Origin: Pseudomonadota bacterium
GTDB lineage: Bacteria > Desulfobacterota > Anaeroferrophillalia > Anaeroferrophillales > Tharpellaceae
NCBI GenBank assembly: GCA_034659215.1
Contig: JAYEGS010000244.1
Location: forward strand, 12,659-76,658
Reading direction: 5' to 3'
Length of the DNA stretch: 64,000 nucleotides
This document shows positions 2,466 to 17,481 of the stretch, piece after piece. Position numbers and translations under genes: made by a program. Position 1 is the first letter of the stretch. The number at the start of each line of letters is the position of its first letter. Below the pieces are notes generated by a model that saw only the letters and a list, made by a program, of their open reading frames with translations, was not told the DNA's origin and ran no database searches.

Positions 2466-2482
2466 TTAGAGCTAACCCATAC

Positions 2483-3562
2483 CTATAAAGACTGAGGAAG
2501 GGGCAGGAATGAATCCGCCCTGGGATTACACTTGACCGCTGAAGCCGATTTTAAATCATTCTGCAAAGCCAGGTTTGCAAGAAAAATCTCTGCTGTCTTC
2601 TGCCAGGTAAACTCTTCTGCATACCTGCGGCAAACTGCGGGGTCGAGATCCAACGCGGCCAGAGCCGCCTTGCGCAGGTCCCTGTCAACATAGCCGGTCT
2701 TTCCGGGTTTGATTACATCGATGGGACCGGTCTCAGGAAAGGCTGCAACCGGTAGACCACAGGCCATCGCCTCGAGCATAACCACGCCAAATGTGTCACT
2801 TTTCGAAGGAAAAACAAAGACATCACCACTGGCAACATGTTGCGCCAGCTCTTCTTCCTGTTTAAAACCACACCAGAAAACCTTATCGTAAAGCCGGCTA
2901 AGGCGTTTGCGATCGGGACCATCGCCTACGACCACCTTGCTGCCGGGGAGATCGAGTTTGAGAAAAGCATCGAGATTTTTTTCCCGGGCAACCCGGCCAC
3001 AATAGAGGAAAACCGGTCGGGGCAAAGCGGAAAATTTTCTATCTCCTTTTTTTAGCGGCTTGAACTTTTCCGTATCTACCCCCCTGGTCCAGGTTACAAG
3101 ATTTCTAAATCCCCGGCCGACCAAAGTCTGCTTCAGAGATTCTGTCGGGACCAGAGTAGTTTTTGCGGCCCCATGAAAGTGCCGCAAAAAAGAGTAGGTC
3201 AAAGCTTCAGGAACCGCGGCGTACTCTTTGAGATAGATCGGAAACTGAGTATGATAAGAGGAGCTGAACGGAAAGCTGTTTTTTAAGCACCAGCGCCTTG
3301 CGGCTCTGCCGACAGGGCCTTCAGTGGCAATATGGACAGCGTCAGGTTCAATTTTTTCGAGGAGTTTCGCAACCCTTTTGTAAGGGCGAAAAGCGAGTCT
3401 TATCTGAGGGTATCGGGGGCAGGCAAAGGTCGGCCCGATACCGGGATGTATAACCTCCAGTTGATGCCCCTCTATTTGCAGTATTTGACCAGTTCTGGTC
3501 CAGGTGGTAACAACACCGTTAATCTGCGGAAGCCAGGCATCACTGCAGAGAGCTATCTTCAT
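2483..3562 (-). CDS. glycosyltransferase family 4 (GT-B, group 1)
   Basis: Typical GT4 layout, with an N-terminal ...DAWLPQINGVVTT... domain and a C-terminal GDGPDRKRL / E-x7-E-like region. 21 nt separate it from the upstream PHP gene. Confidence 0.75.
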   Translation of the reverse strand: MKIALCSDAWLPQINGVVTTWTRTGQILQIEGHQLEVIHPGIGPTFACPRYPQIRLAFRPYKRVAKLLEKIEPDAVHIATEGPVGRAARRWCLKNSFPFSSSYHTQFPIYLKEYAAVPEALTYSFLRHFHGAAKTTLVPTESLKQTLVGRGFRNLVTWTRGVDTEKFKPLKKGDRKFSALPRPVFLYCGRVAREKNLDAFLKLDLPGSKVVVGDGPDRKRLSRLYDKVFWCGFKQEEELAQHVASGDVFVFPSKSDTFGVVMLEAMACGLPVAAFPETGPIDVIKPGKTGYVDRDLRKAALAALDLDPAVCRRYAEEFTWQKTAEIFLANLALQNDLKSASAVKCNPRADSFLPLPQSL

Positions 3563-3585
3563 TCTATTTTTTCCTTATAAATTTA

Positions 3586-5466
3586 TCAGGCAGCCGCTGC
3601 ACTTTTCTGCAAGCGACAGGAGTTGCGGTTAAAAACTATTTTCTCAGGCGCAATCCCCTTACTGACCAGATGTTGTTTGTCATGCTTATTGTCAACAATA
3701 ATAAGATCGGCCAGAGAAGCACTCCAGTCAATAAAGCGCTCCAGAAGCCGCCCCAGATCACTCTCATGCCAGAGCCTTTGTGAAGTTTTAATAAAACTTC
3801 GTTGATAGAGAAATGTGGATTTGATATTGAGAAGATGGGCCCCCGCCAGAACTGCTATTCCCATGGAGTTGGGAATTGATACGATGACCCTTTCCGCCTG
3901 AAGCTCTTCCAGACTGCGAAAAACTTCCAGAAAAGGGGGCAGCGGCAGCTCAAAAGCTGCTCCCTTGCCAAGCTTGACATAAGAAACCGGTTTAAAGTTG
4001 ACAATATCTGGGTCATTTTCAGCCTGATTCGGGTCACAGGTCATAGTTACAACCGAATAAAATTCACCAGCAGCAGCAATGGAATCACAAGAGGTATTTA
4101 TAATCCCGTTTAGCTGAGGCCTGAGTTTGCGGCCCGCAACAACAACACTCCGGGGAGATGTCTGAGGGAGGTCAAGTTCAGTTGCCAACTCTTTTAGAAA
4201 TAGATCGTCCTTGTGCTGGGTCGAGAAAGCGGCAAGATAGGGCGCTATCGCCAAAGCCACCGGCCCCAGAGCGGTGATTGTCTGCAAGGCATCAAACAGG
4301 TTTCCATGACGAAGGTGCCTAAGAAACTGCTCGACAAAACGCCAACTCAAGTGGTGGCAGATTTTACAGGAAGCCGCAAAAGATCTCTCCTGCGCCAGCT
4401 GATCGTCGAGGGCACTATTAAGCGACCTCGTAAAGAGCTGACCAATCTCATCAACAATCACTCTTTCGATCGGGGAAAACTGACGCTTTTTTCCGGCCCA
4501 GCATATTTTATCGACAAACAGTTTGTAACGACTCGGCCAGCTTTTCGGTTTATCGTCGTTCGGTGAAAGCAGATTCTGTAAAAAAGCTCCCAGCAGATCA
4601 TTGCTGATTTTTTTGTCAACCCCGAAACGGTCTTTATAATAACTGTAGGCAATTTTATAGAAGCTATGCGCAAGTTTCAGTGAATTGCCGGAACTGCCGC
4701 CCGGAAAACAGCGACCATTCGCAATATTTATAAGGTACTCAGACAAGTTTTCACCGGCAGAAGTTTCTGTCCAAGCCGTAGCTATAAAACTTCCGCTATG
4801 GTCATCACTGCCGCCGGTAAATGTTTTCAGCCAGGGCTTATAACCAATCGGCAAAAGATCATGTTTTGCCGACAGATCGTCAATCAGTTGCGGGGTCAGA
4901 GAACTGCAGATCAGCTTAAAGAGATCAGCTGCCCGAGGATCACGACTACCGTTGATAGCTTCAAAATGGGTAAACAGGAGGAGAAGTTTTTCGAGATGTT
5001 CCCGGTCAAGCCGGTCATCAACCCGAAAAAGAGGATGGGCTACCGAGTGAATGATTCTCTCCCTATCGATGTACCCCTTAAGATCGTAAACATTTTTTCG
5101 CAGATAGCTCAACTCAGCAAACTGTTTTTCTGAAATATCATACACCAGAATATGCAGTTTAGCCGGCACTTCGGGAAAATAGGTGGTAAGTTCGCAACTT
5201 AAAAAAGTATCGGCAAGATGCGAGATTTCCAGCGCACCTTCAATTTTATTATGGTCGGTTATCGTAACATAGTCCATACCTGAAGACTTTGCCTTGCGAT
5301 ATATCTCAAGCGGCTCAACATAACTTTCCGGTGCTCCAATCCGTCTGAGAAACCATTCACTGGGGCGATTTGAATATTTGCTGTGAACGTGTAAATCGAC
5401 TCTGGTGGTCATATCTTTCTCAAAAAATTGTTTTTTCCAGGTTGGCCTGACTTCATCAACGCCCAT
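3586..5466 (-). CDS. PHP (polymerase/histidinol-phosphatase) domain-containing protein
   Basis: N-terminal DLHVHSKYS...ITDHN metal-binding histidine motifs typical of the PHP fold. The long C-terminal region is unassigned. Confidence 0.6.
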   Translation of the reverse strand: MGVDEVRPTWKKQFFEKDMTTRVDLHVHSKYSNRPSEWFLRRIGAPESYVEPLEIYRKAKSSGMDYVTITDHNKIEGALEISHLADTFLSCELTTYFPEVPAKLHILVYDISEKQFAELSYLRKNVYDLKGYIDRERIIHSVAHPLFRVDDRLDREHLEKLLLLFTHFEAINGSRDPRAADLFKLICSSLTPQLIDDLSAKHDLLPIGYKPWLKTFTGGSDDHSGSFIATAWTETSAGENLSEYLINIANGRCFPGGSSGNSLKLAHSFYKIAYSYYKDRFGVDKKISNDLLGAFLQNLLSPNDDKPKSWPSRYKLFVDKICWAGKKRQFSPIERVIVDEIGQLFTRSLNSALDDQLAQERSFAASCKICHHLSWRFVEQFLRHLRHGNLFDALQTITALGPVALAIAPYLAAFSTQHKDDLFLKELATELDLPQTSPRSVVVAGRKLRPQLNGIINTSCDSIAAAGEFYSVVTMTCDPNQAENDPDIVNFKPVSYVKLGKGAAFELPLPPFLEVFRSLEELQAERVIVSIPNSMGIAVLAGAHLLNIKSTFLYQRSFIKTSQRLWHESDLGRLLERFIDWSASLADLIIVDNKHDKQHLVSKGIAPEKIVFNRNSCRLQKSAAAA

Positions 5467-5626
5467 AATTTATCTGTCCAAAGTTAAATTAAGTTAAAGA
5501 AAATATTAATTATTTTTAAAGAAAAAATATTTAGCAAGACAAAAAATTTATCTTATCTTAACGATTTCAAGTTATGAACTAGCCTTGATGCAATCCAATC
5601 AGGCCTAAAAAAGGAGGAAAACAATA

Positions 5627-6169
5627 ATGGCTTTTGTTAACAAGCAGGAGTTTGGTCTGACTTTCGGGGAAACCGATAGCCTGGTCAGCGAAATTGTTGA
5701 GCTCCTCAAAAAACATCATGTTTTCGACGAGGGCTATCCTGGTCGAGATCTGGTCGAGGCGGAGAAGGTAAAACTCTCTTTTCGCAAGAAGGAAGATGTT
5801 TCCAAAGTAAAACTCCAACTTCAATTCCCGGAAAAGTTCGAGTATAATCCGAAAAGTGAAAGGGAATTACTTGAAAATCCCAAACTTAAATACAGTAAGT
5901 TAAAAAAAATGATGAAAAAATCCTATGCCGAACTCTGCCGGGCAGTTCAGGATGATATTTTGCCGCCGGCAGATCTGGTTGGAAACTTCATTAATCAATC
6001 GGCAAAAATGGTGACCTACGGCGGCCGTGGTGATGAGCACTACGACCGATATTCCGACGCCTGTTTCAATTTCAAGCAGGCCTATGATGATGGCGACCAG
6101 GAAAAAATGAAGGCAGCTCTGGCACGGGTGCAGAAGATAAAAAAAGAGTGCCATGAGCACTACAAATAG
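5627..6169 (+). CDS. GAK-cluster small protein, possible XXXCH-domain protein
   Basis: RBS AAGGAGG 7 nt upstream. The C-terminus ends ...KKECHEHYK. It is the first gene of a co-directional cluster with ATP-grasp, HprK-like kinase, amphi-Trp and CofD-like genes. The domain assignment comes from memory of the TIGRFAM description. Confidence 0.4.
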   Translation: MAFVNKQEFGLTFGETDSLVSEIVELLKKHHVFDEGYPGRDLVEAEKVKLSFRKKEDVSKVKLQLQFPEKFEYNPKSERELLENPKLKYSKLKKMMKKSYAELCRAVQDDILPPADLVGNFINQSAKMVTYGGRGDEHYDRYSDACFNFKQAYDDGDQEKMKAALARVQKIKKECHEHYK

Positions 6170-6184
6170 AGAAACGGAGTCAAT

Positions 6185-7345
6185 ATGGGCATAGCCGACA
6201 GCCTGAAAATCGTACCGGTTTCAGGCAACCTTCCGGAAGTAGATCAAGATATCTGCGAAGCGGACGAAAAAAGATTTTTCAAAGTTGTATCTACTAAATT
6301 GAATGATCTCGAAACTCAACGAATAACTACGCCCGAAGAGGTGTACAAAAGAGAGGAGGAGGTGCTGGCAGTTCATTGGCACCCTGAGTTTATTCCTCTT
6401 GATCTGATTACCGAAAGAATCGAAAAACTCTACCCCAATCGCCGCCGTGAGCTGATCATCCCCACCCAGCACAACGTCATGCTGGATTACAACGGCTACT
6501 CCGGGGTGGAGGTTGATTGTTATTCAAGCGGATTTAATCGCAAGGTCCAGCTGTTAATTCACTTCAACTCCAGCTTAGTGCGCGACAAGGAGTGCGGGGT
6601 TTTCGAAAACATTCTCGAGCATACTTTCAAGTACCGCTCATCCCAGCTCTTCAGCTTCATGGGAGCCCTGACCAAGCCCAAGCAAGAATGGCTGGAAAAA
6701 GCGGCCCGCGAAACCGGCGCCCGACCGGAGCTGATCGATTTCATCGCCTCTCATGTTAAAAAAATAGAGTCTTTAATTGAACTTCACTACGATCACATAC
6801 CCAGAGCCAGCATCAAAAACAAACTTTTACGAAACTATTTTTATGAGCTTGCCGACACTCTTGATGAAGCTGTAATCATACGGATTCAGGCTTTTCTAAA
6901 GAGCCTCAAAGAGATTGTTAAGAAAAATTTTTCCCTGAAATTCTTCTATCGAACTTCAGAAATAATCGAGGAAGCCCGATCTCTGGGGGCAGGTATTGTA
7001 ATTCCTCACCCGGAACAGTTCTGGCCCATTCTGATGGCTGATTATGATGTCGATGGCTACGAAATCTGGAACCCTCAATCCCGTGAATACACAGAGTTCC
7101 TAATTTCGGTCTTAAATCGACGCAACTCCAACCATAAGGGTCGCAGACTCCTGGCATTCATGGGTGACGACACTCATTTTGGTGAAAAAATCAAACACCC
7201 TGATGAAAGAAAAAAAGAGAAAGGCGACCGGGAGATCGGACTGCAACCGGCTTGGAATGATCTTGCTATCAGTAAAGAGTTGATTAAAGCCGGTCTCAGC
7301 AAAACTCAGGTCATGGCCGAATACAGAGCTCGCCTGGACGGCTGA
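6185..7345 (+). CDS. hypothetical protein (GAK cluster member)
   Basis: ORF 16 nt after the previous gene, on the same strand. No recognisable motif. Confidence 0.5.
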   Translation: MGIADSLKIVPVSGNLPEVDQDICEADEKRFFKVVSTKLNDLETQRITTPEEVYKREEEVLAVHWHPEFIPLDLITERIEKLYPNRRRELIIPTQHNVMLDYNGYSGVEVDCYSSGFNRKVQLLIHFNSSLVRDKECGVFENILEHTFKYRSSQLFSFMGALTKPKQEWLEKAARETGARPELIDFIASHVKKIESLIELHYDHIPRASIKNKLLRNYFYELADTLDEAVIIRIQAFLKSLKEIVKKNFSLKFFYRTSEIIEEARSLGAGIVIPHPEQFWPILMADYDVDGYEIWNPQSREYTEFLISVLNRRNSNHKGRRLLAFMGDDTHFGEKIKHPDERKKEKGDREIGLQPAWNDLAISKELIKAGLSKTQVMAEYRARLDG

Positions 7346-7361
7346 AACTGGAGAAAAATTT

Positions 7362-7628
7362 ATGGATTCCAAAAAGTTCTCGCACATCTCAATTCAGGAT
7401 ACTGAAGCTGTTAAACTTTATCTTAAATCTCTAATTGAGGCCCTTGAAAAGAAACAGATCACTTTATCCTCCGGTAAAGAAAAAATGGAGATGACTGTAG
7501 GGGATTTATGCCGTGTCTCAATCCAGGCAAAGAAAAAAGGGCCTGAAAACAAACTCTCGATCAAGCTTAACTGGAAGGAAAACGGCAAACTGATGGAACT
7601 TTCGGAAGATGATGTCGAAATACTCTGA
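7362..7628 (+). CDS. amphi-Trp-like small protein, paralog 1
   Basis: 88 aa. It parallels the 85-aa ORF at 12653: acidic N-terminus, then K-rich, then a conserved Trp in KLNWKEN versus KLSWKQE. Confidence 0.5.
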   Translation: MDSKKFSHISIQDTEAVKLYLKSLIEALEKKQITLSSGKEKMEMTVGDLCRVSIQAKKKGPENKLSIKLNWKENGKLMELSEDDVEIL

Positions 7629-7646
7629 ACATCAAGGTATCGATAA

Positions 7647-9317
7647 TTGAGTAACGAATTTTACGAGATCCAGAATCTCGAAGATAATTTCAGCCTGCTC
7701 CTAACCGAAACTTCCAGTCAGGTGGAGCGCTCGTTCACGTTCATAGAGACTTTTTCGCAAGATCTTTACGAAAAGGTCGTCCAACGCGACGACTACATCG
7801 ACAACCTCAAGCTGACCATTGAAAATCAATGTTTTGACTCACTGCGTAAACTTACCAGTAAAAACAAAGAAGAGATGTCTCAGATTCGGGCGCGTCAGAT
7901 TATCTGCGTTAACCTGGAAAAGATCGCCGATTTCTGCGTCAATATCTGCAAGCAGGTTGAGTTTATCCACGATAAGGATTTCTGGCTACAATTCAGTTTT
8001 CAACCAATGTGCCGAATGATAGAGGAGAACCTCAAGCAAATCGAAGCTACCCTTAGCGAGAAAAGTGTGGCCAAAGCCATGATCATCTGCCGGTCGGAGT
8101 GTGAACTTGACGATCTCTTCAAGGAAAATTTTGACCAGATAATGCTTTTTCTCCGGACCGGAGAGCAGGTCGATACCTGCGTGACCACCCTCTTCATCTT
8201 CCGCTATCTCGAACGTATGGGGGACTCTCTGCTTAATATCGGAGAAGCAATACTGCTGGCAATACTGGGTGATAAAATAAAGATCCGTCAGTTTGAAGCG
8301 ATGCAGCAGAGCCTTGATCAATCAGGCATGGAGATTCCACCGGAAAAACTTGAAGTAAACTCATTTCTGGGAACCCGTTCCGGCTGCAATATAAGCCGAC
8401 TGGCAAACGAAGTTAACCAGGGTTTAAGCGATGAACGTCGGGAGGGTCTGTTTAAATCGGGAAACCCCGAGAAAATCGAGCGGGAAAAGGATAATATTGA
8501 AGAGTGGTCAAGGATAAAACCGGGCCTTGTGCCAAAGATATTCTCCTTCCAGAAAGAGCCGGACCGCAGTTCAATGCTGGTGGAATTTCTATCTGGCCAG
8601 ACACTTGAAGCTACGATAGTCTCCTGCAGCTGGCTGGAAATTGACCAGATTATGAATGAACTCAAGGCAAACATTGTTGAGATCTGGAAAAAAACCGCGA
8701 TCAGGAAACCGACTCCCACTAACTACATGGACCAGCTTTTAAAAAGAACTGAGGCGATCAGGACAATCCACCCTGATATCATGTCGGATGGTCAGATTAT
8801 TGGCGGAGTTGAAATCCCCTCGGCAGAAACTCTGGTAAAAAATTGCCGCCACTGGGAGAGCCGGACACCAGCCCCCTTTTCAGTCTTTGGTCACGGCGAT
8901 TTCAATGTTAACAATGTTCTCTATGATTTTGAGAAACAGGCCCTTCACTACATCGACCTCTACCGCTCACATCGGGCTGACTACCTGGAAGATGTTGCGG
9001 TTTTTCTGGTTTCCAACTTTCGCCTGCCGATTTTTGACCGGGAGACCCGTAAAAAAATCAACAAAACGATTATCAGCTTTTACGATTTTGCCCACGATTT
9101 TGCTCAAAAGAACAAGGATCAGACCTTTGCCCTGCGCCTGGCTCTGGCACTGGCAAGATCCTTCATGACTTCAACCAGATTTGAACAAAAACGAAAATTC
9201 TCCCGGGAGATGGGATTGCGCTCAACCTATCTTTTAGAAAGAATTGATCGACATTTGAGCAGCAATGGTTCACCGGTTGATTTTTCTTTCCCCAGGAGTA
9301 TACTTATCTTGCCCTAA
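7647..9317 (+). CDS. PhoU-like domain fused to a protein-kinase-like/APH-fold phosphotransferase
   Basis: N-terminus has PhoU signatures: DDYIDNLKLTIENQ and RYLERMGDSLLNIGE (compare ERIGDHATNIAE). C-terminus has HGDFNVNNVLYD, a kinase-like HGDxxxxN catalytic loop, and DLYRS (DxD-like). Confidence 0.55.
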   Translation: MSNEFYEIQNLEDNFSLLLTETSSQVERSFTFIETFSQDLYEKVVQRDDYIDNLKLTIENQCFDSLRKLTSKNKEEMSQIRARQIICVNLEKIADFCVNICKQVEFIHDKDFWLQFSFQPMCRMIEENLKQIEATLSEKSVAKAMIICRSECELDDLFKENFDQIMLFLRTGEQVDTCVTTLFIFRYLERMGDSLLNIGEAILLAILGDKIKIRQFEAMQQSLDQSGMEIPPEKLEVNSFLGTRSGCNISRLANEVNQGLSDERREGLFKSGNPEKIEREKDNIEEWSRIKPGLVPKIFSFQKEPDRSSMLVEFLSGQTLEATIVSCSWLEIDQIMNELKANIVEIWKKTAIRKPTPTNYMDQLLKRTEAIRTIHPDIMSDGQIIGGVEIPSAETLVKNCRHWESRTPAPFSVFGHGDFNVNNVLYDFEKQALHYIDLYRSHRADYLEDVAVFLVSNFRLPIFDRETRKKINKTIISFYDFAHDFAQKNKDQTFALRLALALARSFMTSTRFEQKRKFSREMGLRSTYLLERIDRHLSSNGSPVDFSFPRSILILP

Positions 9318-9320
9318 ACT

Positions 9321-9329
9321 AAATAACCT
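9321..9329. repeat. 9-bp target-site duplication AAATAACCT (left copy)
   Basis: Identical 9-mer at 10646..10654, immediately outside the IS inverted repeats. Confidence 0.7.
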
Positions 9330-10645
9330 CAGTGTTGTCCGGTTAGGAATTTGCATGTAAAAAATATAGAAGAAAATTGAAAATAATGTCATTTTTTACT
9401 TGACATTCGAGCAATAGTGCGCGCGCGATTTTACCTGTAATATCAACTACTTACAGGGGGAATTGTAAATGCCGCGCACTTTGTCACCAAAAAAATTTGG
9501 TCGATTACCATCGTTTAAATCAGTCCTCTTTCCGCTTACTGGAGCATCTTGTGGCGTTCCAGAATTAATATCTGGAAGTAATAGAGATTTGAAAATGACA
9601 TTTGAAGATCAACTTAAAGTTATGGTCTACTTCCATTTGAAAGATTTTAAGTCTGGTTGCCACCTGCTACAAGATCTACAGGAAGATGACTTTGCAAAAG
9701 AGTTTATAGCCCCCAATGGTGGAATCGGTAAAAGTACATTTTTTGATTCGCTAAACGAACGTGGCCTCGAACAATTCTTACACGTTTTTCAAAATCTGTT
9801 TAAACAAGCGAGTAATCAGATACCTAAAGAATTTTCTGAACTGGGAGATCTGGTTGCCATTGATGGTTCCCTGATCGATTCGGTTCTCTCCATGGTCTGG
9901 GCCGACTATCGCAAAGGGTCAAAAAAAGCAAAAGTCCATTTTGGGTTTAACGTTAATTGCTCTATTCCACAAAAGGTTTTTTTAACCGATGGCAATGGAG
10001 CCGAACGGCCTTTCGTTCAAAAAATTGTGGAACCAGGTCAAACAGGCATAATGGATAGGGGTTATCAAAGTCACGACCTGTTTGATCAATGGCAAGAAAA
10101 TGACGTCCATTTTGTCTGCAGAATCAAAGGCAATACTCAAAAAACTTGTATTAAAGAGCTTCCTTTTGAAACCGGGGGCGACATCTTCTATGATGCAGTG
10201 GTTCGCCTGGGTCAACCTGGCGTAAATGAGACTAAAAAGGATCTACGCCTGGTTGGTTATAAAATTGGCGACAAAAAATATTGGGTTGCGACCGACAGGT
10301 TTGATCTAACGGCTGAGCAGGTCGCCTTAATCTACAAACTGCGTTGGAACGTGGAATCTTTTTTTGCCTGGTGGAAACGCCATATGCGAGTATATCATTT
10401 AATTTCAAGAAGTAAGCATGGGTTAATGGTTCAAATATTATCAGGTCTTATCACATACCTGTTGCTCGCCATTTATTGTAACAATGAATTTGGCGAAAAA
10501 GTTAACATTAAGAGAGTGCGTGAATTACAAATAAAAATAGCCAATGAGATTCGCCAGCTGGATCAGGAACCTCCAGATTTTGATCCGGTGGAAGAAAACT
10601 GGACAGAACCATTATTGCAAGCAAATCTCTAACCGGACACCACTG
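9330..10645 (+). mobile_element. IS4-family insertion sequence (1316 bp), intact
   Basis: Left inverted repeat CAGTGTTGTCCGGTTA at 9330..9345. The right one at 10630..10645 reads CAGTGGTGTCCGGTTA as reverse complement, a 15/16 match. It is flanked by the 9-bp direct repeat and holds a single DDE transposase ORF. Confidence 0.8.
9469..10632 (+). CDS. IS4-family DDE transposase
   Basis: DDE residues lie in VAIDGSLID, IMDRGYQS and YKLRWNVESFFAWWKRH (the Y-x2-R-x3-E-x6-K IS4 signature). The stop codon overlaps the right inverted repeat. Confidence 0.85.
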   Translation: MPRTLSPKKFGRLPSFKSVLFPLTGASCGVPELISGSNRDLKMTFEDQLKVMVYFHLKDFKSGCHLLQDLQEDDFAKEFIAPNGGIGKSTFFDSLNERGLEQFLHVFQNLFKQASNQIPKEFSELGDLVAIDGSLIDSVLSMVWADYRKGSKKAKVHFGFNVNCSIPQKVFLTDGNGAERPFVQKIVEPGQTGIMDRGYQSHDLFDQWQENDVHFVCRIKGNTQKTCIKELPFETGGDIFYDAVVRLGQPGVNETKKDLRLVGYKIGDKKYWVATDRFDLTAEQVALIYKLRWNVESFFAWWKRHMRVYHLISRSKHGLMVQILSGLITYLLLAIYCNNEFGEKVNIKRVRELQIKIANEIRQLDQEPPDFDPVEENWTEPLLQANL

Positions 10646-10654
10646 AAATAACCT
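10646..10654. repeat. 9-bp target-site duplication AAATAACCT (right copy)
   Basis: Matches 9321..9329. Confidence 0.7.
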
Positions 10655-10682
10655 CTTACTCAACCTATTGAGGAATCAATAT

Positions 10683-11576
10683 ATGAAAATTGGAGTAGTA
10701 GGAACTGCCGGCGGCTGGTCATCTGAACTTCTCGCCGATAGAGTCGCTGAAAAGACCGGCTCCCGTCTCCTGATCGAGATGGACAGAACCCGGCTCGATC
10801 TGCCGGCCGGAAAACTCTGGTTCAACGATGTTGACCTGACAACTCTCGATGCCCTGCTGATAAAAAAAATCGGGCAGCGTTACTCGCCTGATCTCCTGGA
10901 TCGCCTCGAAATGCTGCGGATCTTGTCTAAAAAAGATGTTTTAATCTGTTCCGACCCGCTTAAAATCCTGCGCGTTCTGGATCGTTTAAGCTGCACTGTA
11001 ACCCTGCAGGAGAACGAAATACCGATGCCGGAAACTTCGATCACGGAAAATGTTGAACTTGCCGCCGCCATAATCCGGGATTATGGCGAAGCCGTACTGA
11101 AACCCCTCTACTCAACCAAGGCAAGAGGCATGACGATAGTAAGCGACGGCCCAGACCTTATTAAAGTGCTGGAAAATTACAAAAAAGAGAATACGATTAT
11201 CTATATTCAGAAAAAGATCGACCTGGGCGAGTTTGACCTGGGGCTGGTTTTTCTGGGCGGCAAATATCTGACCACCTATGCCCGCTGCCGCCAGGATAAA
11301 ACGGCATGGAACACAACCACAGCGGCCGGCGGTAAATACGCCGCCATTGATCCCGAACCGGAAGTTATTGAGCTTGCCCGCCAGGCTCAGGCACCCTTCG
11401 GACTCGATTTCACCTGTGTCGATGTTGCTCTGACAGATGCGGGGCCGGTAGTTTTTGAAGTTTCTGCTTTTGGTGGTTTTCGCGGCATCCTTGAAGCTCG
11501 AGGTCTGGATGCTGCTGCTCTTTTAACTGACTATGTAATTGAAAAAGTGGACAACCATAATGACACAAACAGCTAA
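10683..11576 (+). CDS. ATP-grasp enzyme (RimK/GshB-like), GAK-system type
   Basis: ATP-grasp fold motifs (LKPLYSTKARGM, IYIQKKIDLGEFDLGLVFLGGKY, ...FEVSAFGGF). Preferred start is the ATG at 10683 with GAGGA 8 nt upstream. The ORF-track TTG is at 10668. Confidence 0.7.
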   Translation: MKIGVVGTAGGWSSELLADRVAEKTGSRLLIEMDRTRLDLPAGKLWFNDVDLTTLDALLIKKIGQRYSPDLLDRLEMLRILSKKDVLICSDPLKILRVLDRLSCTVTLQENEIPMPETSITENVELAAAIIRDYGEAVLKPLYSTKARGMTIVSDGPDLIKVLENYKKENTIIYIQKKIDLGEFDLGLVFLGGKYLTTYARCRQDKTAWNTTTAAGGKYAAIDPEPEVIELARQAQAPFGLDFTCVDVALTDAGPVVFEVSAFGGFRGILEARGLDAAALLTDYVIEKVDNHNDTNS

Positions 11577-12651
11577 AAGTCTGAATCAACTGGCAGAAGA
11601 GTTTTTAAGTGGCGTTAGTCTTACGCAAACGCTATCTTTAAAATTTGAAGATTATCTCATCGGCATCCAGAGCAACTCTCACTCTTTGATTGAAAATTTG
11701 CGGCACTATTTCGCAGACTTTGTGGTTGAGGGTAGTGCGCCTGCACTTCTGGTGACAGCTATCGAGATGGAGCAACCTAAGTTTGACCTCCACTTTGAGA
11801 TCAAGGTTCCGGACCCCGGAAAAACTAAAATCAAGGAAGAATTTGTTAATATCGAAGGCGGCAGGATAGTCAGGAAACGCTTGACCGGCATGAGCTTTCT
11901 CTTCGGTGGCTCTATAAACCTGGCGCTTGGTCCATGCCGGGCAAACTCAAACCAGGTAATAAACTTTATCAACAACCGGTTTATCTCCTACAAACTTAAT
12001 CAGGGCTGCCTCCTCGGTCATGCTGCCGCTGTAACTGCAAACGGCAGAGGTCTGGCGCTGGCAGGATTTTCCGGGATGGGAAAATCAACCCTGGCCCTGC
12101 ACCTGATGAGTCGCGGCGTGAAATTTGTCAGTAACGACCGGCTCCTGGTTGACGCTGAGAGAAAAGATGAATTGAAAATGTACGGGGTTGCCAAGCTGCC
12201 GCGGATTAATCCGGGAACCGCTCTCAACAACCCCGACCTCGTCAAAGTTCTACCGGTCGATGACTACAAACGTTTCTCTCTGATTGAACAGGATGAGCTC
12301 TGGCAGGTCGAGCATAAATACGATGTTTTCATCGACGACTGCTTCGGCCCCGATCGTTTTCAGATTAAAGCTCAAATGAGCGCTCTGGTAATCCTTAACT
12401 GGCAACATAACGCTCCTGAAACCTTAATCAAACAAGCTGATCTCTCCCGACGACTGCAGATCCTGCCGGCTTTCATGAAGACCGCCGGCCTCTTTTATCT
12501 CGATGAGAGCAACCGAAACGAAGAGATGGAGAGGGTTGATTTTTACCAGGAACAACTCTCCTTATGCCCGATATATGAATTGAGTGGTAAAATTGATTTC
12601 AGCAAGGCGGCTGATTTGTGCATCTCATTATTAGAAGAGACGGAGCTATAG
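11539..12651 (+). CDS. HprK-related P-loop kinase
   Basis: LAGFSGMGKSTLALHLMSRGVKFVSNDRLLVD matches the HPr kinase/phosphorylase C-terminal P-loop pattern G-x-SG-x-GKS...DD. It overlaps the ATP-grasp gene end, consistent with translational coupling. Confidence 0.65.
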   Translation: MKKWTTIMTQTAKSLNQLAEEFLSGVSLTQTLSLKFEDYLIGIQSNSHSLIENLRHYFADFVVEGSAPALLVTAIEMEQPKFDLHFEIKVPDPGKTKIKEEFVNIEGGRIVRKRLTGMSFLFGGSINLALGPCRANSNQVINFINNRFISYKLNQGCLLGHAAAVTANGRGLALAGFSGMGKSTLALHLMSRGVKFVSNDRLLVDAERKDELKMYGVAKLPRINPGTALNNPDLVKVLPVDDYKRFSLIEQDELWQVEHKYDVFIDDCFGPDRFQIKAQMSALVILNWQHNAPETLIKQADLSRRLQILPAFMKTAGLFYLDESNRNEEMERVDFYQEQLSLCPIYELSGKIDFSKAADLCISLLEETEL

Positions 12652-12652
12652 T

Positions 12653-12910
12653 ATGTCTGAAAAAAAAGTGGACTTTACAACAAAGGGTGAAAACCAGGAG
12701 GTGGTTAACTATCTCTCCTCTCTGATTCAGGGTTTTGAAAAAAAGCGTCTTATCCTGACTCATGCCGATGATGAAGTTGTCCTCTACCCCGATGACGAAA
12801 TCACTTTCAAAGTCAAAGCCCGTCTCAAAAAAGGTGAAGCCCGGGTGGAACTGAAACTCTCCTGGAAACAGGAGGCAGAATCTGGTAAAGAGATCTTAAT
12901 CAGCAATTGA
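12653..12910 (+). CDS. amphi-Trp-like small protein, paralog 2
   Basis: 85 aa, paralogous to 7362..7628. Starts 2 nt after the kinase stop. Confidence 0.5.
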   Translation: MSEKKVDFTTKGENQEVVNYLSSLIQGFEKKRLILTHADDEVVLYPDDEITFKVKARLKKGEARVELKLSWKQEAESGKEILISN

Positions 12911-12981
12911 GATCACAGTTATTAACTGGATGGATATTCTCCGACGCAACTACTACTGTCTGAAAGCTTAAAAATGTTCAA

Positions 12982-14208
12982 TTGAGAATGAAACACAAAC
13001 AGTCCGAACCTAACACAAAGATTCTTATCAACCGGGAATTTTCGATTCCCGACCCGGAAAAACTGGAACTCTACCGCTCCAACCCTTCTCTTGGCCCGCG
13101 AATTCTTTTTTTCAGCGGGGGCTCGGCAATCCGCCAGCTCAGCACCAGGCTTATCAACTACACCTGGAACTCAATCCATTTAATAACCCCTTTTGACTCA
13201 GGAGGCAGTTCTGCCGTTTTAAGAGAGGCTTTTCGCATGCCGGCAATCGGCGACATTCGCAATCGTCTTATGGCCCTGGCGGACCAGTCAGTACTCGGCA
13301 ACCCTGAAATTTTCCGGCTCTTTGCCTACCGTTTACCAACTGCCGCTTTAGAAGATGATCTTCTAAATGAGTTTACCAGCATTCTCGAAGGCCGGCATGA
13401 GTTGGTTGCTGCCGTCTCATCACCGATGCGTAAGATCATCAGGCATCATCTTAAACTTTTCTCTGAACTAAAGCCGGAAAAGTTCAATCTCGCCGGTGCC
13501 AACATCGGCAACCTGGTCCTGACAGCCGGCTACCTTGAGAACCGCCGTCATCTTGACCCAACCATTTATATTTATTCGAAATTAGCCGAAGTGCGGGGAG
13601 TTGTCAGACCGGTTGTCAGCGTAGACTGTCACCTCGGCGCTGAACTTAACAATGGAGCAAGGATTATCGGTCAGCACCTTATCACCCGACAGAACAGAGC
13701 TAAAGCAAAGCAGCGAATAGAGAAAATATTTTTACTTGAGGCTGGAAATCCGGTTTCAGACATCAGTGATGAAATCTCTATACGTCCCAAAGTTGCTGAA
13801 CTGATCAATAAAGCGTCCATTATCTGCTACCCGATGGGAAGCTTTTTCACCAGTCTGATTGCCAGCCTGCTGCCTTCGGGGATTGGTTCGGCGCTAGCGC
13901 GAAGCCGAGCGCCGAAAATATACATTCCCAATACGGGAGATGATCCGGAAAGCTTTGGTTTAGACTTGATGGATCAGATCGATACCCTTTTAAACTATCT
14001 GAAGAGAAACAATTCCACCCTAGATGATAAACAACTGCTTAATTTCGTTTTACTTGACAGCAACGAAAAAAATTATACCGGCAAGCTCAATCCGGCAGAT
14101 CTTGAAGAGCGCGGCATCAGAATCATCCGCCGCAATTTAATCTCTGCCGCAAGCAAGCCATTGATCGATGCCGACCTTCTAACTGAAACCCTCCTCTCCC
14201 TCAACTGA
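12982..14208 (+). CDS. CofD-like / UPF0052 (YvcK-like) family protein
   Basis: ILFFSGGSAIRQL...ITPFDSGGSSAVLRE...IGDIRNRL matches the CofD/YvcK N-terminal signature. Confidence 0.7.
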   Translation: MRMKHKQSEPNTKILINREFSIPDPEKLELYRSNPSLGPRILFFSGGSAIRQLSTRLINYTWNSIHLITPFDSGGSSAVLREAFRMPAIGDIRNRLMALADQSVLGNPEIFRLFAYRLPTAALEDDLLNEFTSILEGRHELVAAVSSPMRKIIRHHLKLFSELKPEKFNLAGANIGNLVLTAGYLENRRHLDPTIYIYSKLAEVRGVVRPVVSVDCHLGAELNNGARIIGQHLITRQNRAKAKQRIEKIFLLEAGNPVSDISDEISIRPKVAELINKASIICYPMGSFFTSLIASLLPSGIGSALARSRAPKIYIPNTGDDPESFGLDLMDQIDTLLNYLKRNNSTLDDKQLLNFVLLDSNEKNYTGKLNPADLEERGIRIIRRNLISAASKPLIDADLLTETLLSLN

Positions 14209-14372
14209 CAATGGCCGGACAAAAGTTAACTAAATTCTTCTGCTACCATCTTGAAGATAATTTGATCGGCATTTTTCATCAAGCTCTCCCTCTCACCGAA
14301 TCAACCGAATCCGCTTTTTCTAAAGCAAACAGAGCCTGTTTGGGGCCAGCAACCCCTTTCTGTGCAGCCTCA

Positions 14373-14750
14373 TTAACGCTCTTGGTCCGTATGGTGCGCT
14401 GCATAACTGATTGCGCAATTTCCCCCGCACCACAGAACGTGCCATCTCCAGGGTAAAGAGCTCATCTTTAACCGATTTGAACTGTTTTTGCCGTAAAAAA
14501 CATTTTTCCCGGAGGCAAAGGCAAATTTACCGTTAAACTTTCCGTTTCGATGGAGAAAAACCGTATCGATCTGGTGCCGCATCAAAAGGTTAATCGCGGC
14601 ACTGGTAATCTCGATACGACCGACAATCACCAACTGCTCGGTCTTAAAGGGAAAGATCGACTTTAAAAGATCATCCCCTTTGCGCAGTTGCAGAACATCG
14701 CCCCTTTTTACCAGGCGCCCGTAATCAGAAACCACATAAATGATCGACAC
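14373..14750 (-). pseudogene. cas1: cas1 N-terminal remnant (truncated, ~90 aa Cas1-like then out of frame)
   Basis: MSIIYVVSDYGRLVKRGDVLQL...TEQLVIVGRIEITSAAINLLMRHQIDTVFLHRNGKFNGKFAF matches the Cas1 N-terminal beta-sandwich pattern (v-x-i-x-G-x-v-x-iT-x2-A-x2-L-x4-IP-v-x-Fl-x3-G-x-y-x-G). The ORF stops after 125 aa, whereas Cas1 is about 300 aa. No CRISPR array nearby. Confidence 0.5.
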
Positions 14751-15083
14751 ATTTTCACCTCAGCCAAAAAGGACAATACCAATACCTGCAAAAAAGTTAT
14801 CATGTCCAACCGATAGTGAAGCTTCATCATCAAGCAACAAGAGAATAGAGACTATCAGTTCATCCCGACTTTGGTCATCAACAATGAAAACCCCAAGAAC
14901 ACTGCATAGCTCTCTGAGTTCACCGTTTGACATCACTTCAAGCTGCTGCCGCCAATTCATGATTTCCATCTCCTCCTTCGCATCTACAACCAACCATTTT
15001 CTTCAGAAGGCTTTTTCCATCACAAGGGGAAAGAAGCAACGATTATTGAAGCCAGAAGGTCTCAATCCTTTTTTTCAGGTAAC

Positions 15084-15653
15084 TTGCTTGAACTCAAGGC
15101 ACAAATAGAAGCTGGGAGGAGCGAACTCACAAAATCGGCGCAAAGAAAAATTGAGAAGTACTTGGTTTGCTCGAAAAAAGGACGGGGCGGGCAGTTGAAA
15201 ATAGGCTTTGATGACAAGGCTATAGCCAAAGCAAAGAAGTACTTCGGCTATTTTGTGCTCGTCAGTAACCAGACCATGGACACGTTTGTCGCGCTAGAAA
15301 ACTATCGATTGCGAGAAAAAATAGAAGAACTGTTTGCTGTACAAAAGGGAGGGCTTGACGGTGCACGGCCACGCACATGGTATCCCGACAACCTGCGAGG
15401 AAGACAATTTGTGCAGTTTGTATCACTGGGCTACCATTGTTTCCTGACGAAGAAAATAAAAGAAGTACGGGCTAGACTTGGAAGGAATGAAAACGGAAAG
15501 ACTAAGGCTCTCATCAAACTCGAAAAGAAACTGGATCAATGGATTGAGCAACGCTCTCTTGCCCAAATTCTAGACTGGTTCGACTGTATTGAAACAACCA
15601 CCGTGCAGACTGCTATGGGCAACTATCGAATCGATGGTCTACCGAATCAGTAG
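15084..15653 (+). pseudogene. IS4/IS1634-superfamily transposase C-terminal fragment
   Basis: KKYFGYFVLVSNQTMD...YRLREKIEELFAVQK....ARPRTWY is the C-terminal E-containing block (Y-x2-R-x2-IE-x2-F) of IS1634-like transposases. The N-terminal DD region is absent. Confidence 0.5.
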
Positions 15654-15719: not shown

Positions 15720-16322
15720 TCAGGGGAGTCTCGACTTAAAAAGCTTTTCGGCCTTGTCACGGTCCTGAAAGAGGGGCCGTTTTTTGATCTTTTTCTTGGC
15801 TCGTGGAGAGCCCATTATTTTTTCGGAAATTGTATTAAAGTCGGATTGCAGATAGATGACGCGTCCGATGTCGTTTAAATTATCTACTCCAATAAAACCA
15901 CCACCCGTGGAAATGACTGTATTTTTTACGGAATGTGCCAGCCAGTCAGCAACTTTTTGTTCAAGGTTGCGGAAATAAGCTTCCCCTTTCTCTTTGAATA
16001 TATTTCTAATTGTTCTGTTTTCCAAGCTTTCAATCAGATCATCTGTGTCAATGGCAAAGTAATCTGTTTGTCTAGCCAATTCTCTGGCCAATTTGCCCTT
16101 GCCGACACCCATAAAGCCGATTAGGAGAATATTGTTCGATTTAATCTGGACAGAATCTTTTTTTCGGTCTATGCTGGTGGTACCGGGAACAATCTTTTGG
16201 GTTTGATCCCGGCTGGCTGCTACCGGGCATTTGCGACAAAATTTTCCCTTTTTTTTAAATTTACGGCAACATTTTTTCTTTATTTTTTTCTTTTCCATGC
16301 GACGATTTCCTTTGGGAAGCAA
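15720..16322 (-). CDS. aroK: shikimate kinase with Lys/Cys-rich N-terminal extension
   Basis: ILLIGFMGVGKGKLARELA...FAIDTD...ISTGGG are shikimate kinase Walker A and LID motifs. The N-terminal 40 aa (KKKIKKKCCRKFKKKGKFCRKCP) are unusual. Confidence 0.7.
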   Translation of the reverse strand: MLPKGNRRMEKKKIKKKCCRKFKKKGKFCRKCPVAASRDQTQKIVPGTTSIDRKKDSVQIKSNNILLIGFMGVGKGKLARELARQTDYFAIDTDDLIESLENRTIRNIFKEKGEAYFRNLEQKVADWLAHSVKNTVISTGGGFIGVDNLNDIGRVIYLQSDFNTISEKIMGSPRAKKKIKKRPLFQDRDKAEKLFKSRLP

Positions 16323-16459: not shown

Positions 16460-17266
16460 ATGCAGATATTCGTCAATGAACATAGTTGTCAAGTTGAGGC
16501 GGAAACCCGGCTGTATGAGCTCCGAGATCGTCAGAAGCCGAATGCTGACCTGTTGATTGTCAACGGTTATCCGGTTAGTGAGGATCAACAACTTAAAGGT
16601 GGCGACCGGGTGGTGCTGATTCGGCGTGGTAAACAGCCGACGAGCGCTGATCTTGAAGCCCTGATGAGGGCTCGTCATACACCGGGCGTGCATGAGAAAA
16701 TTAAAAATAGTTGCGTCGGGATCGCCGGCGTTGGTGGGTTAGGTTCCAGTATCGCAATAGCCTTGGTTCGGGTCGGGGTCGGCAAGCTGGTGGTTGCTGA
16801 TTTCGACCTGGTCGAGCCTTCCAACCTGAATCGGCAGCACTATTTTATCGATCAGATTGGGTTGCCGAAAGTGCTGGCCTTGCAGGAAAGTTTACAGCGG
16901 ATCAATCCCGGCGTGCAAGTTGAAACAATTCAAGAGAGAATTACTCCGAAAAATCTGCTCATCCATTTTTCCACAGTTGATGTGATGGTTGAAGCCTTTG
17001 ATGCAGCCGATCAAAAAACGATGCTGATCAGCCACTTTTTGCGTGATTGTCCGCAAATACCGTTAGTCGCAGCCTCGGGGATGGCCGGCTATGCTCCCTC
17101 TAACAGTATCACAACGCGCAAGGCGGCTAACAATCTCTACCTTTGTGGTGATGGTATCACCGCAGTACTGCCGGGGCAAGGTTTGATGGCACCCCGGGTC
17201 GGAATTGCGGCGCACCATCAGGCCAATGCGGTCTTAAGGTTACTGCTTGGCGAAGAGCCGGAATAA
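16460..17266 (+). CDS. thiF: ThiS-like ubiquitin-fold domain fused to ThiF/MoeB-type E1-like adenylyltransferase
   Basis: N-terminus MQIFVNEHSCQVE...GGDRVVLIRRG is a ThiS/MoaD-like beta-grasp. After it comes the ThiF nucleotide-binding motif GIAGVGGLGS...DFDLVEPSNLNRQ. Confidence 0.7.
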   Translation: MQIFVNEHSCQVEAETRLYELRDRQKPNADLLIVNGYPVSEDQQLKGGDRVVLIRRGKQPTSADLEALMRARHTPGVHEKIKNSCVGIAGVGGLGSSIAIALVRVGVGKLVVADFDLVEPSNLNRQHYFIDQIGLPKVLALQESLQRINPGVQVETIQERITPKNLLIHFSTVDVMVEAFDAADQKTMLISHFLRDCPQIPLVAASGMAGYAPSNSITTRKAANNLYLCGDGITAVLPGQGLMAPRVGIAAHHQANAVLRLLLGEEPE

Positions 17267-17280
17267 GGAATTAAAAATTT

Positions 17281-17481
17281 ATGGATTTATGTGTCAACGG
17301 TCAGAATAGAGAATTTCCCCAACCGCTCAATGTCGAGCAGTTGCTTGAACATCTGGAGCTGAAGCCGGAGCGGATTGTGGTTGAACTGAACCGGGAGATC
17401 TTGACTATCGACAGACATGCCGACATTCAGCTCCAGGATGGCGACACGCTGGAGCTGATCCAGTTTGTTGGCGGTGGTTAG
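17281..17481 (+). CDS. thiS: sulfur carrier protein ThiS
   Basis: 66 aa ending in GG, with a MoaD/ThiS-like sequence. Sits just upstream of thiG. Confidence 0.7.
   Translation: MDLCVNGQNREFPQPLNVEQLLEHLELKPERIVVELNREILTIDRHADIQLQDGDTLELIQFVGGG

Follow-up and report, generated by a model that had tools for sequence, protein, structure and literature searches.

The 64-kb stretch of DNA analysed here (the window) carries, at positions 5627–14208 on the + strand, what is almost certainly a genuine and complete operon of the GAK system, split by an IS4-family insertion sequence (IS) that leaves every coding sequence undamaged. Eight co-directional open reading frames (ORFs), separated by gaps of 1–70 nt or overlapping, are all present where the original prediction placed them, as is the IS4 transposase ORF. 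The same prediction had named the cluster as a GAK system and pointed to hidden Markov models (HMMs) TIGR04352 to TIGR04358; the relevant set proved to be TIGR04354–TIGR04358, and all five of these curated models match within the one co-directional cluster, far above cutoff. TIGR04352, which describes HprK-related kinase A and belongs to another context, reaches 35.7 bits against a cutoff of 200. Comparison with related loci (designated by L numbers) reveals the same gene order in 80 loci spread over several phyla, ruling out chance as the origin of the cluster. The locus is thus a further example of a catalogued system and is not unusual as an instance; its value lies in the sharper and testable picture that it gives of a system for which a literature search, covering the GAK system and HprK-related kinases, returned no paper. 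That picture comprises a revised list of five core and two accessory proteins, a fold for the last enzyme that had none, a candidate modification site at Ser10 of a small protein named amphi-Trp, a possible heme- or metal-binding module and a comparative-genomic link to phosphate. Our best explanation, held tentatively and by analogy with known enzymes, is that the operon may encode a phosphate-status-linked module that covalently modifies its own amphi-Trp protein.

To delimit the system, we searched for HprK-related kinase B (HprK-B) using one genome per species, recovered 318 relatives and examined 80 loci, so that the GAK system occurs in at least 318 species-level genomes. The 80 loci are mostly from Desulfobacterota, with further examples in Nitrospinota, Planctomycetota, Zixibacteria, Ignavibacteria, Spirochaetia, Coatesbacteria and one actinomycetotal metagenome-assembled genome (MAG). 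The conserved order is XXXCH protein, 386-aa protein, amphi-Trp, PhoU-kinase, ATP-grasp, HprK-B, an optional amphi-Trp, CofD-like protein and another optional amphi-Trp. Counting only loci with enough flanking DNA (n = 59 or 64), the PhoU-kinase is present in 58/59, the 386-aa protein in 57/59, and the ATP-grasp and position-1 amphi-Trp proteins in 56/59 each, whereas the CofD-like protein is found in 45/64, XXXCH in 32/59 and a second amphi-Trp in at least 25/64. The conserved core therefore consists of a PHP-fold phosphoesterase, amphi-Trp, the PhoU-kinase fusion, the ATP-grasp ligase and HprK-B; XXXCH and the CofD-like protein are accessory, frequent but dispensable in many lineages. No further gene family is conserved around the cluster across the 80 loci. 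This list departs from the catalogue, which holds five families: the PHP-fold protein and the PhoU-kinase are added to the core, and two of the named families become dispensable. It also changes how the window is read, as the PhoU-fused kinase and second amphi-Trp gene, both previously taken as special to this instance, are common features of the system, and the 386-aa protein, previously listed without a function, is a core component. Catalytic or nucleotide-binding motifs are invariant across the families of the four recognised enzymes, and all eight GAK genes are under purifying selection, with ratios of nonsynonymous to synonymous substitution (dN/dS) of 0–0.17 between the window and its metagenomic relative L081.

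Enzymes of the GAK operon

The core 386-aa protein (6185–7345, +) has no match in Pfam or NCBIfam. Grouping its family at 90% identity gives 1,620 clusters, every one of them annotated as hypothetical and lacking a Pfam domain; a family profile finds no match in Protein Data Bank (PDB) sequences or Pfam, and the Pfam PHP model PF02811 matches 0 of 49 members. The protein is nonetheless assigned to the PHP barrel fold, as an enzyme resembling metal-dependent phosphoesterases, with 3o0f and RNase AM, which we take to be nucleotide or short-RNA phosphoesterases, as its best PHP matches. Family invariants are H64-x-H66, H96, E109, D111, H126, H275, E277, D288, D290 and D328-D329-x-H331. Like PHP metal ligands, H64/H66, H96, E109, H126, H275 and D329/H331 each follow successive predicted strands, suggesting an active-site geometry with the PHP metal-ligand set (HxH, H, E, H, H, DxH). 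What sets the protein apart from known PHP phosphoesterases, including 3o0f-type nucleotide phosphatases, RNase AM/YciV, the PHP domain of Pol III alpha and the protein-tyrosine phosphatases CpsB/YwqE, is a relationship undetectable by sequence even with a profile, together with a helical insertion of ~120 residues (roughly 129–250) that breaks the barrel.

The core fusion protein of 556 aa (7647–9317, +) joins a PhoU domain (~1–225) to an APH/EcKL-type kinase domain (~230–556). Pfam PhoU matches in two stretches with 85.5 bits against a cutoff of 23.5, APH and EcKL each score 27 bits, and PhoU homologues in the PDB are 1sum and 1t72; a profile of the kinase domain has its best match in APH(3′) (4feu, E = 1e-4). 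Invariant residues include H416-G-D418...N423, I436-D437 and the acidic PhoU motifs. The two-repeat PhoU domain with conserved acidic motifs recalls PhoU of pstSCAB-phoU operons, but the GAK version is fused to an APH-like kinase domain that canonical PhoU lacks, and genomes such as those of L006, L031 and L075 have a canonical phoU besides, as a gene of its own. The PhoU equivalog model TIGR02135 gives 82.7 bits, below its cutoff of 130.25, for a fusion of 556 aa against ~220 aa in stand-alone PhoU.

Downstream of the IS, the GAK ATP-grasp ligase (10683–11576, +; 297 aa from the ATG in an ORF that opens at 10668) scores 432.1 bits with TIGR04356 (cutoff 300) and falls in the RimK/LysX/MptN clade. 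Its next-best models all stay below their cutoffs (MptN, 124 versus 350; RimK_fam, 81 versus 143; LysX, 73 versus 276), a CofF model is also detected, and the nearest solved structures are LysX/ArgX (5k2m, 3vpd and 1uc8) and RimK (4iwx and 5zct). It shares a clade with RimK, LysX and MptN/CofF. RimK and LysX add amino acids to S6 and LysW, and in the LysW system both an ATP-grasp enzyme and a kinase act on the small carrier protein; amphi-Trp differs from S6 and LysW in having an unrelated fold and no conserved acidic C-terminus.

The HprK-B gene (11539–12651, +; 370 aa, containing GFSGMGKSTLALHL...SNDRLLVD) begins before the ATP-grasp gene ends, an overlap that amounts to 4 nt in the L081 gene calls, and its product scores 496.6 bits with TIGR04355 (cutoff 200). 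It matches the C-terminal domain of HPr kinase/phosphorylase (HprK/P; 2qmh and 1ko7), aligning only around the P-loop, and reaches 33.5 of the 240 bits set for the HPr kinase/phosphorylase equivalog TIGR00679. Invariant residues are the Walker A motif G176–S183, H161 and N199-D200-R201. HprK-B resembles HprK/P and the lasso-peptide kinases PadeK and PsmK as a P-loop kinase with a GxSGxGKS Walker A motif encoded beside a small-protein gene, and differs from them in that neither HPr/phosphotransferase-system genes nor lasso-peptide genes lie nearby. PadeK and PsmK, which are HprK-like, phosphorylate a serine of lasso-peptide precursors (PMC6993621).

The accessory CofD-like, or YvcK-like, protein (12982–14208, +; 408 aa, with a probable start at ATG 12988 that gives 406 aa as in L081) scores 491.4 bits with TIGR04357 (cutoff 340) and 128 bits with Pfam CofD (cutoff 30). 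Its nearest solved structures are the YvcK-type UPF0052 proteins 2ppv, 2o2z and 2hzb; the YvcK subfamily model TIGR01826 gives 112.9 bits, short of 196. CofD is the F420 2-phospho-L-lactate transferase, and YvcJ, the partner of YvcK (also named GlmR), is a P-loop NTPase. Similar to the GlmR–YvcJ pair, the GAK CofD-fold protein is accompanied by a P-loop protein; the differences are that F420 genes, whiA and glmS are all missing nearby and that the protein is absent from ~30% of GAK loci. GlmR binds UDP-GlcNAc, partners with YvcJ and switches partners (PMC7525490). Eight Maridesulfovibrio-type loci (L004, L011, L012, L013, L017, L020, L024 and L049) carry a second CofD/YvcK-like gene on the − strand, ~8–10 kb downstream of HprK-B and 35–40% identical to the GAK one; this second gene may be the housekeeping YvcK, making the GAK CofD-like protein an extra, dedicated paralogue.

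Amphi-Trp and XXXCH proteins

The window encodes two amphi-Trp proteins that match TIGR04354 with 58.7 and 58.1 bits (cutoff 31): the core, position-1 protein of 88 aa with a single tryptophan (7362–7628, +), and a position-2 paralogue of 85 aa (12653–12910, +; 58.1 bits). The amphi-Trp fold, for which we found no solved relative, consists of an amphipathic helix on a four-stranded sheet with a basic face, and carries an invariant tryptophan (Trp71 in the window core copy). Immediately ahead of the helix, position-1 copies share the motif F-x-x-[ED]-S-phi-Q-D, in which Ser (Ser10 in the window copy) is conserved in 66/68, Gln in 65/68 and Asp in 64/68. The E-S-x-Q-D motif is missing from position-2 paralogues and is kept in position 1 with or without CofD-like or XXXCH at the locus, so any enzyme acting on it must be part of the core. 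Apart from a phi-x-phi motif ~15 residues past the tryptophan, amphi-Trp tails are variable. The last residue is Ser or Thr in 33/68 sequences, though not in the window or its nearest relatives; the two window copies end VEIL and LISN, the core copy and its closest relatives end VEIL or VRIV, and in position-2 copies the tail is often long and either acidic or Lys/Ala/Pro-rich. The position-2 protein of the window is 100% identical to that of L081 despite a dS of 0.12. An exhaustive HMM search identified 2,066 representatives of the amphi-Trp family; the best 150 of these are all small (76–223 aa), with the domain N-terminal in most, and no enzyme fusion was seen among those 150. In Dissulfuribacter thermophilus, an amphi-Trp protein ranks among the top 20 proteins by abundance (PMC13490349).

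The first gene of the operon encodes the GAK XXXCH protein (5627–6169, +; 180 aa, ending ...KKECHEHYK), which scores 89.4 bits with TIGR04358 (cutoff 40) and combines an amphi-Trp-like N-terminal domain (~3–70) with a C-terminal XXXCH domain (~89–180). Compared alone, the window sequence gives an hhalign probability of ~1% against amphi-Trp, and we initially rejected the relationship; a family profile reversed that verdict, with profile–profile comparison of the N-terminal domain giving a probability of 91% (E = 1.1e-6) over 71 columns. Because the N-terminal half of XXXCH is, by profile comparison, a divergent homologue of amphi-Trp, the cluster encodes three amphi-Trp-type domains, which differ from one another in their C-terminal extensions.

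The C-terminal domain resembles the last helices of the class II four-helix cytochromes b562 and c′. Family invariants are K93, K94, F121, M128 and H176, with Y89, M96 and C175 near-invariant. Among 34 members, 15 weakly match Pfam Cytochrom_B562 (best E = 5e-4) and 5 match Cytochrom_C_2, for which the XXXCH score of 19.3 is below the threshold of 26.5. The family profile also matches more than 20 cytochrome c′ chains with E values of 0.02–0.1, below threshold but mutually consistent, and these matches cover the C-terminal stretch, where ...KkeCHakYK of XXXCH is set against ...CKACHDAYK of cytochrome c′; the ...CHxxYK end thereby falls on the C-terminus with which cytochrome c′ binds heme. Residues Met96 and His176 lie at what we take to be the Met and His ligand positions of cytochrome b562. 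The domain differs from these cytochromes in that all of its matches stay below family thresholds and in having only one cysteine, which gives XXXCH in place of CXXCH. Inspection by eye reveals no apparent signal peptide in the XXXCH protein, so that heme is unlikely to be attached in the periplasm in the canonical way. Binding of heme or a metal by this domain is put forward purely as a conjecture from sequence resemblance.

Phosphate link and proposed function

Genes for phosphate uptake recur beside the GAK cluster. In L006, pstA, pstB, phoU and a PhoB-like regulator lie directly upstream and co-directional with the cluster, and in L031 pstC, pstA, pstB and phoU are upstream, in both cases as identified by curated models. 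L075 has two phoU genes downstream, next to which similarity to these verified genes locates a pst operon and a PhoR-like kinase; L008/L064 and L039 also have pst/phoU genes bordering the cluster. Similarity searches find pst/phoU in the flanks of 9 of the 80 loci, plus L007 with the regulator only, representing at least 5–6 lineages, compared with a crude expectation of ~0.4 loci for the 628 kb of flank surveyed at 1–2 pst operons per ~4-Mb genome. Outside the GAK context, L070 (a Nitrospirota MAG) carries an HprK-B homologue (7996–9108, +) without other GAK genes inside a Pho cluster whose flanking genes (1845–13618) are phoU, pstB, pstA, pstC, pstS, an O/P porin, phoX and a PhoB/PhoR-like pair. 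Together with the PhoU domain found in 58/59 core kinases, the recurrent pst/phoU neighbours suggest a link between the GAK system and phosphate supply.

The original prediction had proposed that the cluster builds or modifies a small molecule or peptide that bears phosphate, and that the amphi-Trp proteins could be substrates or carriers; these are still the right pair of hypotheses. We lean, with less than even confidence, towards modification of amphi-Trp itself. HprK-B would phosphorylate core amphi-Trp, for which the likeliest site is Ser10, near-invariant within the E-S-x-Q-D motif before the helix; its role as serine kinase is suggested by analogy, as HprK/P and PadeK/PsmK phosphorylate serine on a small protein or peptide. 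The ATP-grasp enzyme may in addition join an amino acid to a carboxylate on amphi-Trp, following the precedent of RimK with S6 and of LysX with LysW. Removal of the phospho-mark would fall to the PHP-fold enzyme, and the PhoU domain would make the second, APH-like kinase responsive to phosphate or metal status. The CofD-like protein, through nucleotide-sugar binding or phospho-transfer, would be a frequent but dispensable add-on, and XXXCH another, in which an amphi-Trp-like handle carries a four-helix domain that possibly binds heme or metal. Consistent with a substrate role, amphi-Trp proteins are small, non-enzymatic, nearly always stand-alone and strongly constrained, and the nearest solved relatives of the ATP-grasp enzyme act on protein C-termini. 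If correct, this would add a small-protein modification cycle and a phosphate-linked regulatory layer to sulfate reducers and nitrite oxidisers. A bolder form of the proposal, which we regard as doubtful in its entirety, is that amphi-Trp represents a new kind of small modified protein, which serves an unrecognised post-translational pathway as its dedicated substrate or carrier. In this pathway the HprK-type kinase, RimK/LysX-type ligase and PhoU-coupled kinase, with the PHP-fold enzyme as eraser, would set and clear phospho- or aminoacyl marks according to phosphate status, and optional amphi-Trp 'handles' would deliver a heme-binding four-helix domain or polyanionic or polycationic tails. 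Such a pathway would amount to a widespread mechanism of phosphate signalling or storage in anaerobic sediment bacteria, unrelated to PhoR/PhoB.

Several observations weigh against phosphate-linked modification of amphi-Trp. The case for covalent modification is one of analogy with related enzymes. Amphi-Trp matched none of LysW, HPr and S6 in fold, and ligation in the style of RimK or LysX at a conserved amphi-Trp C-terminus was considered and rejected, as the C-termini vary. Several of the enzymes lean to small-molecule chemistry in their affinities to MptN, APH(3′), 3o0f/RNase AM and CofD. On the phosphate side, 70 of the 80 loci, including the window and L081, have no pst/pho neighbour, and Pho boxes upstream of 62 GAK operons are not enriched over shuffles or coding controls when scored with an E. 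coli-type consensus that may not fit these phyla. The HprK-B of L070 contains one in-frame stop (between …FLIA and ITAK…) and may be a pseudogene or reflect an assembly error, and we have down-weighted that case because of the stop. We found no expression data on GAK genes and phosphate in the literature, and a phosphate-limitation study of D. alaskensis G20 mentions no GAK-type genes.

The affinities of the enzymes are better accommodated by a pathway that builds or recycles a phosphorylated, amino-acid-conjugated metabolite, either cofactor-like or resembling a phosphate-storage compound or compatible solute, which we consider nearly as likely as amphi-Trp modification and which would point to an unknown phosphorylated metabolite. 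Here the kinases would generate phospho-intermediates, the CofD-like protein a phosphodiester from a nucleotide-activated donor, the PHP-fold enzyme would trim phosphate, the ATP-grasp enzyme would add glutamate or another amino acid in the manner of MptN and CofF, and amphi-Trp would be a scaffold, regulator or non-covalent carrier. MptN is the best characterised HMM neighbour of the ATP-grasp enzyme (124 bits), with CofF detected too; the CofD family is known to catalyse phospho-transfer onto small molecules; APH(3′) is the nearest relative of the kinase domain; the top PHP matches are presumed phosphoesterases of nucleotides or short RNA; GT4 glycosyltransferases adjoin the cluster in ~10 loci including the window; and the amphi-Trp C-termini are unconserved. 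But the cluster has no nucleotidyltransferase, transporter or other pathway enzyme as a conserved companion, and the CofD-like protein is missing from ~30% of loci, so the phosphodiester step cannot be essential. To our knowledge, moreover, every characterised member of the HprK family phosphorylates serine on a small protein or peptide, and a metabolite pathway leaves the two to three strongly constrained amphi-Trp-type domains of each cluster without a role.

An unlikely alternative in which covalent chemistry on amphi-Trp plays no part is a regulatory complex that senses or switches on phosphate, nucleotide-sugar or redox status, like PhoU–PstB/PhoR and YvcJ–GlmR(YvcK)–GlmS, with amphi-Trp proteins as adaptor subunits and with enzymes that chiefly target one another or housekeeping functions elsewhere in the genome. 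The PhoU domain with its recurrent pst/phoU/phoB neighbours, the resemblance of the HprK-B and CofD-like pair to YvcJ–GlmR (PMC7525490) and the likeness of the XXXCH domain to ligand-binding four-helix cytochromes would all fit, but invariant catalytic residues in four to five enzymes suggest turnover and not binding only, and the cluster lacks a conserved DNA-binding or output domain. Far less probable is a conflict or natural-product system, either an anti-phage defence island or a ribosomally synthesised and post-translationally modified peptide (RiPP) pathway in which amphi-Trp is a long leader and its variable tail the exported modified peptide. An N-terminal amphi-Trp domain with a hypervariable tail does resemble long-leader RiPP precursors, HprK-like kinases occur in lasso-peptide clusters and mobile-element debris flanks the window copy. 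Yet no protease, cyclase or exporter is conserved in the 80 loci, the strongest conservation lies in the amphi-Trp domain itself and not in the tail, relatives have different flanks and the mobile elements occur in the window copy only. PADLOC returned no match for 10 proteins, and we rejected the GAK system as a known anti-phage defence system on that basis.

IS4 insertion and flanking genes

The insertion sequence that distinguishes the window copy from other GAK operons occupies the spacer between the PhoU-kinase and ATP-grasp genes (9329–10646, +; ~1.3 kb) and is not part of the GAK system. Its transposase ORF (9469–10632) scores 200 bits with NF033592 transpos_IS4_1 (cutoff 115), its ends form 35-nt imperfect terminal inverted repeats (9329–9363 and 10612–10646, 83% complementary), and it is flanked by a 10-bp exact direct repeat, AAATAACCTC, at 9321–9330 on the left and 10646–10655 on the right, which marks the target-site duplication. 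The element is present as a single copy within the window and is absent from relatives L081 and L082. L081, with proteins 90–100% identical, carries the same eight genes around an empty site with a single copy of the repeat; its PhoU-kinase/ATP-grasp spacer of 41 nt equals the window sequence minus the IS and one repeat copy. This matching empty site indicates that the insertion is recent, intergenic and non-disruptive to coding sequence, and the transposase model, inverted repeats, target-site duplication and empty site together place the element in the IS4 family. Window-versus-L081 dN/dS values show no difference between genes upstream and downstream of the IS, and most of the divergence between the two loci is probably older than the insertion. 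The IS may lower expression of the four downstream genes; promoter and terminator scans are uninformative on this effect, because they performed no better than shuffled controls.

Beyond the CofD-like gene, a 125-aa ORF (14373–14750, −) has a match to Cas1 that is confined to its ~85 N-terminal residues (Pfam Cas_Cas1, E = 6e-12; TIGR00287, 44.5 versus 71.7 bits) and appears to be an orphan remnant, as no CRISPR-like tandem repeat array exists anywhere in the window. GC skew is strongly negative at 14001–15000 (−0.24). A 189-aa fragment (15084–15653, +) corresponds to the C-terminal third of an IS1634-family transposase (94.9 versus 100 bits; model positions 305–455 of 483), and the two fragments together identify the DNA just downstream of the GAK cluster as decayed mobile-element debris. 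At this position, L081 carries a PIN/VapB toxin–antitoxin pair.

On the other side, divergent from the operon, lies a 626-aa protein (3586–5466, −) with a weak N-terminal PHP match and a C-terminal GT4-like region, followed by a GT4/GT1 glycosyltransferase (2483–3562, −). Kinship between this PHP-glycosyltransferase and the GAK PHP-fold family was rejected (hhalign probability 0.2%). The pair, or a fusion of the two, adjoins GAK or HprK-B in ~10 of the 80 loci (L022, L057, L063, L067, L073, L056 and L061), and we treat it as outside the system because of this limited occurrence. In L067 (a Desulfonatronovibrio MAG; 181–6980), a lone HprK-B sits between the gene for an 808-aa glycosyltransferase and GT4, DUF2334 and sulfotransferase genes; the 808-aa protein has GT4/GT1 Pfam domains in its C-terminal half and an N-terminal part that resembles the window PHP-glycosyltransferase, which hints that HprK-B is able to work with sugar-modifying enzymes outside the GAK context. 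Still further from the operon, a 790-aa ORF (93–2465, −) has no Pfam or NCBIfam match at E ≤ 0.001.

Three other features lie further downstream. A shikimate kinase domain (15720–16322, −; Pfam SKI, E = 3e-25) follows an unusual Lys/Cys-rich N-terminal extension of ~60 residues (MLPKGNRRMEKKKIKKKCCRKFKKKGKFCRKCP...). A 268-aa fusion of a ThiS-like ubiquitin fold to a ThiF-family E1-like protein is followed by a separate 66-aa ThiS-family protein (16460–17481, +), genes that probably serve thiamine or sulfur-carrier chemistry unrelated to GAK. Finally, a 641-aa protein (19497–21422, +) that unites a response-regulator receiver with an NMT1-like binding domain and a CheW domain belongs to a family that recurs in the flanks of 22 loci and is probably a generic signalling family.

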